Assembly: GCA_024278215.1 (NCBI GenBank)
Contig: JAJRTR010000052.1
Span: forward strand, 1 to 64,000
DNA length: 64,000 bases
Source of the DNA: a bacterium
GTDB taxonomy: Bacteria > UBP15 > UBA6099 > JAJRTR01
Reading direction: 5' to 3'
The position numbers were made by a program, and so were the translations under genes. The notes below the pieces were generated by a model. It was not told the origin of the DNA. It saw nothing but the letters and a program-made list of their open reading frames with translations, and made no database searches. Position 1 is the stretch's first letter. The number at the start of each line of letters is the position of its first letter. Positions 42,346 through 64,000 of this stretch are shown one piece after another.

Positions 42346-42771
42346 TCAACCCGCGTTTATCTTGCGGGCGATGCGCGAGAGGGGATGCCCTTTGGCCTTG
42401 ATGTCGAGCCGGTTGAACCAGCCGAATGGAGTTCGCACGGAATCAAAACCCTGCTCTTTAAGGTTCGCATTCACGGAATCCATAATTTCTATCGCTTTCG
42501 CGGGCGCGCCGAGTTTTGCGAAAAGATGCGCGAAGGGATGCACGACGATGTTGCCTACTTTCAGCGCGCGCGCGTGAGAGGCGATTTCATCGGCAGCTTT
42601 CCCGGCGATTATTTCAGGGTTCTTTTCATCTTTACGCTCGACACACGTGTATACGATCAGCGCTTCTTCGACGTATGTCTCGCCGTCGCCGGGGTCCTCG
42701 ACAATGCCGCCGCGACCCTTTTCCGTTATCGTACATTTGAATGAATCCACGTGCCATATAAGCATTCTCAT
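42346..42771 (-). CDS. Stand-alone archaeal-type threonyl-tRNA synthetase editing domain (tRNA-Thr_ED, DTD-like fold)
   Basis: MRMLIWHVD, EEALIVYTCVERKDE, HPFAHL, TPFGW, KGHPLS; AGGAG upstream. Confidence 0.9.
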   Translation of the reverse strand: MRMLIWHVDSFKCTITEKGRGGIVEDPGDGETYVEEALIVYTCVERKDEKNPEIIAGKAADEIASHARALKVGNIVVHPFAHLFAKLGAPAKAIEIMDSVNANLKEQGFDSVRTPFGWFNRLDIKAKGHPLSRIARKINAG

Positions 42772-62228: not shown

Positions 62229-62770
62229 GGGCCGCGAAGGAATATGACCGGAGTCCCCCTTCGGCTCTTTCCATCTCATGCGGCGGCTCCGCGCGCAACA
62301 CATTTTTCGTTCTCCGTTCATTATCAAATTCGGCGGCAGCACTTCTTTATGTCCCAATTGCTTCAATTAAACAGATAAATGTATTACCATAGTGGCTGAA
62401 CGAAAACCCTAAAAGGACTATGGATAAAGGAATAATTGGCGAAAAGAGCAAACGAAGATCGGCAGAAAATATCAGGTACAAATACGAGGAAGACAGTTGT
62501 AATCGCATGTAAGCGATGTATGGCGTTTGAAAAAACGCAATCTTCGCAATAAAATCTTGAAAAGTGGTTGAGCGAAAAACTGATCCGTTAAGCCGGAATG
62601 TGTGAAAAGTGTTCGATATCGAGGCAGACGAAGGAGGCAATGCAACGCATTGTTGACTGAGGATAACGAAGATAGCGGGCAATTTGCGCACATCCCGGCA
62701 GGAGCAGGTTTCCGTTCAACCACTACCATAAATATCTGGCGACAAAATACAGGATTGCGAAGGCTGAACT

Positions 62771-64000
62771 ATGAGACTTTTGATGATACATTCAAATCCG
62801 TTTTCATTCGAGATTACGGACAAAACAAAGTTCGCGGAAGAGATAGTGCCGCCGGTTGTGGACAGGGCTGAAGTGGATAATGCGCTCGTGGTTTTTGCCG
62901 CTGTCGAGCAGCATGATGCCGTCGAGCAGGAAAAAGTTTGCGGGAAAGCTTTCGCTGAAATAAAAAAGACATACGAGAACGTGGGTGCGTCGATAATCGC
63001 TCTGTATCCATATTCACATCTTTCCAACCGGCTCGCGCCGCCCGAAGTGTCACTGCGCCTGTTGAAAAATCTGCGTGGCCTTCTGGAAGACATGCCGCTG
63101 GTTCAGTGTCCGTTCGGATGGTATAAAAAATTCAGCCTCAACGGGATCGGGCACCCTGTGAGCGAATCGAGCAGGGTGATAGAGATCGACGGTCGCCCGC
63201 GGGAACAGAAAGTTATGGGCCGTGGCCGCGAACATCCTGTCGCCGCCATGAACCAGCAGTTCCGCGAGGTCTTCCTCGAACTCGGCCTCGACGAAATGAT
63301 CAATCCGGCGATTATCGACGACTTCCACATCTACAAACAGTACGGCCCGGAAGCGCCACTTATCCTCGACAGGGTTTTCTATATCGCGGGCCTCGACCGG
63401 GCTGATATCGGACTTGGCAAAAGCAAACTCGCAATAATAAATAAAATAGTCCCCGGATTCGACAAAGAGGAACAACTGCAAGCCCTTATGCGCGAATATA
63501 AGGAAGCTCTGATCGAGGCCGACGATTTTCTCGAAGAATTTGCCCTCAGGCTGAAAATCAGCGGCGAACAGGCCGGCGAAATCCTCGAAAAAGCATTCCC
63601 CGAATTCAGGGAATTGACGCCTGTTCCCATGACGCGCACACTGCGCTCGCACATGACAAGCAACTGGTTTCCCGTGCTCCAGCGCATGAGAACTCGATCA
63701 ACGCTGCCCGTGAAACTCTTCTCCGTGGGGTCCCGTTTCAGACGCGAGCAGCGCCAGGATGCGCAACATCTCTACGAAAGCACATCCGCGTCAATTGTTG
63801 TCATGGACAACAATGTTACGATGGAAGACGGCAAAAAGCTGTCATACGACATCCTGAAAAAAATGGGGTTCAAGCGCTGCAAATTCGTAAAGAAAAAAGT
63901 CGCCAGCCGCTACTACGATCCGGAAACGGACACAGAGATATTCGTAAATTATAAAGGAGCACAGATCGAGGTCGGTAATCTTGGCTTCTACGCGCCGGAA
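62771..64000 (+). CDS. sepS: O-phosphoseryl-tRNA(Cys) synthetase (SepRS) with an N-terminal archaeal ThrRS-type editing domain; 3' end outside the window
   Basis: Manual translation gives 410 codons with no stop. Residues 1 to ~137: MRLLMIHS, LVVFAAVE, YPYSHLS, PFGWYKKF, GHPVSESSR. Then GREHPV, EMINPAII, YKQYGPEAPLILDRVFYIAGL, FPEF, TLRSHMTSNWF, KLFSVGSRFRREQRQDAQHL, SAS, SRYY. Confidence 0.92.
   Translation, partial: MRLLMIHSNPFSFEITDKTKFAEEIVPPVVDRAEVDNALVVFAAVEQHDAVEQEKVCGKAFAEIKKTYENVGASIIALYPYSHLSNRLAPPEVSLRLLKNLRGLLEDMPLVQCPFGWYKKFSLNGIGHPVSESSRVIEIDGRPREQKVMGRGREHPVAAMNQQFREVFLELGLDEMINPAIIDDFHIYKQYGPEAPLILDRVFYIAGLDRADIGLGKSKLAIINKIVPGFDKEEQLQALMREYKEALIEADDFLEEFALRLKISGEQAGEILEKAFPEFRELTPVPMTRTLRSHMTSNWFPVLQRMRTRSTLPVKLFSVGSRFRREQRQDAQHLYESTSASIVVMDNNVTMEDGKKLSYDILKKMGFKRCKFVKKKVASRYYDPETDTEIFVNYKGAQIEVGNLGFYAPE

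Follow-up and report, generated by a model that had tools for sequence, protein, structure and literature searches.

A bacterial phosphoseryl-tRNA synthetase with an archaeal-type threonyl-tRNA synthetase editing domain: a further member of a described family and the case for serine proofreading in cis

Introduction

What would a serine-editing domain of the archaeal threonyl-tRNA synthetase (ThrRS) type be doing on a phosphoseryl-tRNA synthetase (SepRS) of a bacterium? The question is raised by a gene at the end of a 64,000-nucleotide stretch of DNA (the window, which is the whole stretch analysed) that makes up positions 1-64000 of the 66302 bp contig JAJRTR010000052.1, from a bacterial genome of the GTDB lineage UBP15 (GCA_024278215.1; 4.55 Mb, 207 contigs, 95% complete). 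A preliminary description, made from the letters of the window alone, read the gene as SepRS fused in frame to such an editing domain (ED) and took the arrangement to be possibly novel. The fusion is real, was correctly read and is already known, and the window adds one member to it. The protein is a bacterial SepRS in which the N-terminal extension has been swapped for a flexibly tethered domain of the archaeal ThrRS serine-editing type, and it belongs to the ED-SepRS family of Mukai et al. It is probable, in our judgement, though with real room for doubt, that this domain edits serine in cis.

The fusion gene and its domains

The frame opened by the ATG at 62771 runs to the window edge as 410 aa without a stop on direct translation, just as had been described, and on extension of the contig, a check that had been proposed for it, closes at contig position 64684 to give a 637-aa protein. 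The frame appears in a listing of open reading frames (ORFs) only when open-ended ORFs are permitted, so that its absence from the ORF track would be explained by the open end at the window edge. The features of the gene are as follows.

62759..62763, plus strand: GAAGG, a possible Shine-Dalgarno sequence read from the sequence, 7 nt before the ATG
62771..63181, plus strand: N-terminal editing domain of the archaeal ThrRS type, residues 1-137, predicted DTD-like fold (PF08915, E 6e-37)
63182..63223, plus strand: linker, residues 138-151, between the end of the ED profile match (137) and the start of the sepS match (151)
63224..64000, plus strand: SepRS proper, residues 152-410 in the window (TIGR00470), running on to 64684 (residue 637)

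The C-terminal part scores as SepRS. The NCBIfam sepS model (TIGR00470) matches residues 151-636 with its profile positions 43-531 of 533 at 440.2 bits, against an equivalog cut-off of 380.65, while the competing models pheS and PylS_Cterm reach 84.6 and 38.1 bits over the whole protein. A grouping with PheRS-alpha, named beforehand as an outcome that would count against a SepRS, did not occur. Residues 239-450 match Pfam tRNA-synt_2d, the class II core of the PheRS type (E 1e-41), and residues 152-633 align with Methanocaldococcus jannaschii SepRS (2DU7) at E 2e-109, up to chain residue 544 of 549. SepRS proper is composed of the class II catalytic core, an insertion domain and a C-terminal anticodon-binding domain; the presence of the last is indicated by the reach of the sepS profile to position 531 of 533, Pfam SepRS_C alone being weak (22.9 bits, below its cut-off of 26.9). 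The phosphoserine (Sep) pocket's Asn-X-Gly motif, which is given as 'perfectly conserved' in SepRS (Mukai et al., 2022, PMC8762117), is found as N423-I-G425. Judged by these profile scores, residues 151-636 are a true SepRS, and the formation of Sep-tRNA(Cys) is predicted.

The N-terminal part is equally distinct. Pfam tRNA-Thr_ED (PF08915) is matched over its whole length, 1-137 of 137, by residues 1-137, with 127.1 bits against a gathering cut-off of 30.2, and the solved structures of the M. jannaschii ThrRS ED (4RRF, E 9e-25) and the Pyrococcus abyssi ED (1Y2Q, E 5e-23) are matched as well; all the motifs that had been quoted, for a tRNA-Thr_ED at residues 1 to about 137 and for the SepRS part after it, are present. 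This domain stands in the place of the canonical N-terminal extension of SepRS, which is missing (profile positions 1-42, M. jannaschii residues 1-53). The proposal that the ED replaces the N-terminal segment of SepRS is thus borne out by the 42 unmatched profile positions.

The same architecture recurs widely. A homologue search at E <=0.001 gave 178 clusters at 90% identity, of which the best 120 were examined; 40 of these 120, the query included, carry PF08915 together with the SepRS core, 39 as full-length proteins of 634-682 aa and one as a partial protein. This supplies the count of like-built proteins that the preliminary description had called for. The nearest homologue cluster is 81% identical to the query, and the 39 full-length fusions used in alignments are 39-81% identical to it. 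Given the E-values and 39 full-length homologues of the same architecture, a chance match is ruled out. The N-terminus MRLLxIHS is kept across 39 homologues of the fusion protein which, together with the GAAGG 7 nt upstream, indicates that the ATG start at 62771 is sound. The linker, which had been put at about 12 aa, is variable in sequence and 10-16 aa long in the 39 fusions.

An AlphaFold2 model of the 637-aa protein, built with 39 homologues, has a mean predicted local distance difference test score (pLDDT) of 82.7 and a predicted template modelling score of 0.46, the pLDDT being 90-95 at residues 1-120, 80-82 at residues 121-140 and below 50 at residues 141-150. The model accordingly shows a pair of well-folded parts joined by a flexible tether, and gives no confidence in their mutual orientation. 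In the monomer model of the ED, strands and helices alternate, again with a pLDDT of 90-95 for residues 1-120.

Relation to published proteins

The fusion has a history in print. An ED-SepRS fusion was reported in bacterium ADurb.Bin236, of the same GTDB order, by Mukai et al. (2017, mBio, PMC5424206), who described SepCysS partner genes in that organism, suggested that serine is edited in cis or in trans, and gave as the rationale for editing that dephosphorylated Sep-tRNA(Cys) yields Ser-tRNA(Cys). The abstract and section 3.2.2 of a later article return to the fusion with the same idea of Ser-tRNA(Cys) removal (Mukai et al., 2022, Front Genet, PMC8762117); 'Desantisbacteria-like' bacteria and HyVt-268 are named there, three variants are counted, the fusion is modelled and the discriminator base U73 is invoked. 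A full-text literature search on the fusion of SepRS and ED found only these two articles, and no biochemical test of ED-SepRS was found in the literature searched; one elsewhere is possible. The preliminary description stands as to its domain reading (an in-frame ED and a true SepRS, the N-extension replaced, the editing residues kept). Its implied novelty does not, since the fusion and the hypothesis have been published (Mukai et al., 2017, 2022) and the architecture is common.

Compared with the published ED-SepRS group, the query shares the N-terminal tRNA-Thr_ED, the short linker, a SepRS without the canonical N-extension, the SepRS clade and the proposed function, and differs by sequence divergence only; as an extra feature, the source genome has an ED paralogue that stands alone and is without the key Lys. 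The archaeal ThrRS EDs (P. abyssi, M. jannaschii and A. pernix; 1Y2Q, 4RRF and 4RR6) and the stand-alone ThrRS-ED, or Ser-tRNA(Thr) hydrolase, are matched by the query in length and predicted alpha/beta fold. However, the ED of the query sits on SepRS and not on a ThrRS catalytic or anticodon-binding domain, has Y for F81 and S for A82, and presumably meets tRNA-Cys rather than tRNA-Thr. With the canonical archaeal SepRS (2DU7, Archaeoglobus fulgidus 2DU3 and Methanococcus maripaludis 2ODR) it shares Asn-X-Gly, TLRSHMTS, FRREQR and the anticodon-binding domain, but it is without the first 42-53 or so residues and has the extra ED; moreover, the host here is bacterial, and its tRNA-Cys carries A37 rather than G37.

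The editing site

Seven residues of the P. abyssi ED lie within 6 Å of the scissile bond, namely Pro80, Phe81, Ala82, His83, Tyr120, Lys121 and Glu134; the mutants H83A and K121M are inactive, and Y120A and E134A stay active (Ahmad et al., 2015, PMC4491819). By alignment, their equivalents in the fused ED are P80, Y81, S82, H83, Y118, K119 and E132, five of the seven being identical. The earlier by-eye mapping of Y120, K121 and E134 was correct, the three corresponding to Y118, K119 and E132, and P. abyssi H83 is H83 here too. Conservation across the 39 full-length fusions is 39/39 for H83, 38/39 for K119, 37/39 for Y118 and 34/39 for E132, and N423 and G425 of the SepRS motif are invariant (39/39). 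With the residues of either site retained over 39 divergent fusions, the two catalytic sites are under purifying selection.

At position 82 (window 63014-63016), 24 of the 42 SepRS-fused EDs carry Ser or Thr, the query (Ser) included; the residue is Ala or Val in 54/54 ThrRS EDs and Ser in 3 of 88 other EDs, counts that come from related sequences and hence are not independent.

Distribution and phylogeny

A tree of 120 SepRS cores gathers the 40 ED-bearing proteins, without exception, into a single clade (SH-aLRT 100). This clade of 51 members also holds 11 proteins of 480-509 aa without any N-terminal domain, one of them annotated partial. The fused EDs require three label changes on a tree of 184 ED domains, which is poorly resolved, and a single clade of fused EDs is not rejected by the approximately unbiased (AU) test (p 0.49).

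The GTDB species representatives hold 453 stretches that code for a SepRS relative. Of the best 80 of these 453 loci, 12 carry the fusion, 10 of them whole and 2 truncated where the contig ends, and they include bacterium ADurb.Bin236 (64% identical over residues 1-637) and Nitrospirae bacterium HyVt-268 (44%). The source phylum is represented in GTDB by 13 species genomes, all of one order. Nine of these carry the fusion, ADurb.Bin236 among them, seven as whole genes (the query counted) and two truncated at the end of a contig; the completeness of the remaining four genomes is 67, 78, 88 and 94%.

The fused genomes outside the phylum are informative as to what the ED serves. A PF08915 search found the SepRS copy to be the sole ED in 4 of 4, so the fused ED there cannot serve an archaeal-type ThrRS; the ED is not a ThrRS spill-over and most likely serves tRNA-Cys. 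Descent of the fused ED from the ThrRS of its host was considered as a general explanation and rejected, there being no other ED in these four genomes and only 35% identity between the fused ED and the ThrRS ED in the source genome. A split form, with an ED gene next to an ED-less SepRS, was also rejected. In a tblastn search with three ED queries over 90 loci, no separate ED gene was found within about 6 kb of five ED-less SepRS loci, the only ED match beside an ED-less SepRS being at one archaeal locus, and the whole-genome PF08915 search of five genomes with an ED-less SepRS was negative as well.

Some relatives from metagenomes, all outside the source genome, depart from the usual pattern. 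The singletons P0122, P0123 and P0144 (636-638 aa) are ED-SepRS-like, 40-52% identical to normal fusions, and have full-length frames in which each of the SepRS motifs (TLRSHMTS, FRREQR and Asn-X-Gly) is changed; P0123 and P0144 also have a degenerate ED site, with the His and GHP gone. For P0122, as for P0123, there is one cluster only, drawn from a single contig. In the 13 phylum genomes no degenerate paralogue of this kind was found, a P0122 query matching only the normal fusion loci there. These proteins are possibly neofunctionalised or decaying copies. In P0137 (840 aa), MBG_2 and Cadherin-like domains come after a full-length tRNA-Thr_ED in place of any synthetase core; the architecture is odd, or else the gene call is chimeric.

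Pathway partners and tRNAs

The partners that the preliminary description suggested looking for (SepCysS, tRNA-Cys and cysS) are found in the source genome, which encodes SepCysS (516.8 bits, cut-off 365.25) and CysRS (411 bits) and has U73 and A37 in each of its two tRNA-Cys(GCA) genes. A second SepCysS-like gene (G000:C121:15424-16944, minus strand) scores 338.6 bits, which passes the subfamily cut-off but not the equivalog one, and a gene for a 92-aa TusA/YedF-like sulfur carrier lies 48 bp downstream of it; the two may form a sulfur relay serving the tRNA-dependent route to Cys. Across the phylum, SepCysS is found in 10 and CysRS in 12 of the 13 genomes. Eight genomes have the fusion together with SepCysS, and one that is 94% complete (G002) has neither.

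U73 is carried by 12 of the 47 tRNAs: two Cys, all three Thr, all four Gly, Ser(UGA) and two Arg(CCG). It is the discriminator of archaeal tRNA-Thr (Mukai et al., 2022). The tRNA-Thr genes of the source genome lie on its contigs C193 and C199. The sole ThrRS of the genome (G000:C196:16758-18653, minus strand; NF003068, 601.8 bits) is of the archaeal type with its own N-terminal ED, and a bacterial D-aminoacyl-tRNA deacylase (DTD) is present, so that proofreading of other kinds is already provided for. In most other genomes of the phylum, too, a further frame of about 640 aa bears an ED in addition to the fusion.

A third ED in the source genome is a stand-alone tRNA-Thr_ED paralogue of 141 aa (window 42346-42771, minus strand; PF08915, E 3e-36), sharing 29% identity with the fused ED and 35% with that of ThrRS. 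H83 is kept in it, with F-N in place of Y-K and R in place of E; the Lys is kept in 179 of the 184 EDs examined. Since the Lys is missing and K121M inactivates the P. abyssi domain, this copy may be unable to hydrolyse or may have been retargeted. Beside it lie a nitroreductase and a glyoxalase-family gene, with no cysteine-pathway genes among its neighbours.

What the editing domain may do

How, then, would the two sites work together? SepRS would charge tRNA-Cys with phosphoserine, and SepCysS would convert the product to Cys-tRNA. Ser-tRNA(Cys), whether from loss of the phosphate of Sep-tRNA(Cys) or from mischarging with serine, would be hydrolysed in cis as the CCA end swings from the synthetic site to the tethered ED. 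The tether would also confine a U73-dependent serine deacylase to tRNA-Cys and spare the other U73 tRNAs (Gly, Thr and Ser(UGA)); tethering makes sense given that Gly, Thr and one Ser tRNA share this base, and the argument has been made with U73 tRNA-Gly (Mukai et al., 2022). Hydrolysis of Ser-tRNA(Cys) of either origin is plausible and agrees with the conservation data.

Several observations weigh against this proposal. With 11 of the 51 clade members lacking it, the ED is dispensable for this SepRS clade, and since no PF08915 domain was found anywhere in the five genomes searched that carry an ED-less SepRS of the clade (their completeness is not given), editing would be an accessory and not a necessity for the lineage. 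The Lys is missing in 2 of 42 fused EDs, and the activity of Y120A and E134A in P. abyssi makes the conservation of these two residues less telling. Fusion and SepCysS do not co-occur in three incomplete genomes, one with the fusion only (G006, 73% complete) and two with SepCysS only (G001 and G012, 78% and 88%). Mukai et al. (2022) themselves ask where Ser-tRNA(Cys) would come from. Further, a serine-sized pocket might accept cysteine, in which case the ED would endanger the very product of the pathway.

That the fusion is an artefact of misassembly, a frameshift or a chimeric contig can practically be dismissed, as the same in-frame junction is seen in 39 full-length proteins of independent assemblies with linkers of 10-16 aa, in 10 whole loci of other species' genomes and in seven whole loci within the phylum (query counted). 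A more serious alternative, credible if on balance unlikely, is that the ED owes its retention chiefly to a structural or tRNA-binding role, in which it would replace the N-extension, help oligomerisation or read the acceptor end and U73, and is no hydrolase in vivo. The ED stands exactly where the canonical N-extension is missing, EDs are dimers, and the ED alone discriminates tRNAs via U73 (work cited in Mukai et al., 2022). The ED-less clade members are also without the N-extension, which points to an evolutionarily plastic region, and the loss of the Lys in two fused EDs and the three fusion-like singletons with degenerate sites are in keeping with such a role. However, the retention of H83 in 39/39 and K119 in 38/39 fusions, down to 39% identity, is not expected of a mere scaffold, the more so as these are the residues whose mutation kills deacylation in P. 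abyssi (Ahmad et al., 2015).

It is rather unlikely, too, that the ED is active on another target, be it Ser-tRNA(Thr) in trans, Gly or Ala on tRNA-Cys, or unconverted Sep-tRNA(Cys) when sulfur is scarce. Ser or Thr at position 82 in 24 of 42 fused EDs, against none of 54 ThrRS EDs, may mean a retuned pocket (the sequences counted being related and not independent), and tRNA-Thr of the source genome also has U73. On the other hand, the single ThrRS of this genome has its own intact ED, and the four fused genomes outside the phylum are without an archaeal-type ThrRS, which speaks against a role on tRNA-Thr. The serine-recognition motif of the fused EDs is reported to be completely conserved (Mukai et al., 2022), and a phosphoseryl group is far larger than a pocket that excludes even threonine (Ahmad et al., 2015).

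A variant of the proofreading proposal addresses the cysteine hazard. The ED might be retuned for tRNA-Cys such that the change from Ala to Ser or Thr at position 82 lets Ser-tRNA(Cys) be hydrolysed and the near-isosteric Cys-tRNA(Cys) be spared, with the untethered paralogue, which is without the water-positioning Lys, serving as a non-hydrolytic aminoacyl-tRNA binder; we regard this as a long shot. To our knowledge, discrimination of Ser from Cys of this kind is found in no described editing domain.

Neighbouring genes and a dispersed repeat

The fusion gene looks monocistronic. Its neighbours in the window encode a bifunctional-nuclease domain protein, a GT2 glycosyltransferase and proteins of no recognised kind; none is a recognised cysteine-pathway gene, and none recurs beside other fusion loci. 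Conserved operon partners were therefore rejected.

A 130-bp dispersed repeat (G000:C22:65085-65214) lies 400 bp 3' of the fusion gene, about 1.1 kb past the window end. It has 163 blastn matches, 38 of them near full length, on 77 contigs of the source genome, and is 84% identical to a site just 5' of the fusion gene in another genome (L011). A search of Rfam at gathering thresholds gave no match in the fusion loci L001 and L011, the repeat included. Several hairpins are predicted in its fold (-38.5 kcal/mol, a value given without a shuffle control), and it looks like an element of the miniature inverted-repeat transposable element (MITE) or repetitive extragenic palindromic (REP) kind.

Significance

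The idea of proofreading by this fusion has been in print since 2017. What is added here is that the family far exceeds the 'three variants' counted in 2022, with at least 40 clusters at 90% identity and at least 12 species-representative genomes; that its SepRS cores form one clade which includes ED-less members; that the editing-site residues are under clear purifying selection; and that four lineages have the SepRS copy as the sole ED in the genome. The finding is not new, and the wider census and the conservation make a bench test better motivated.

Were the ED indeed retuned for tRNA-Cys, the protein would be the first synthetase of an indirect aminoacylation route with its own working proofreading site. 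If the fused ED edits Ser-tRNA(Cys), as we think probable, it would constitute the first known proofreading step in the SepRS/SepCysS route to Cys-tRNA, and could offer a natural template for cleaner incorporation of phosphoserine in genetic-code expansion.

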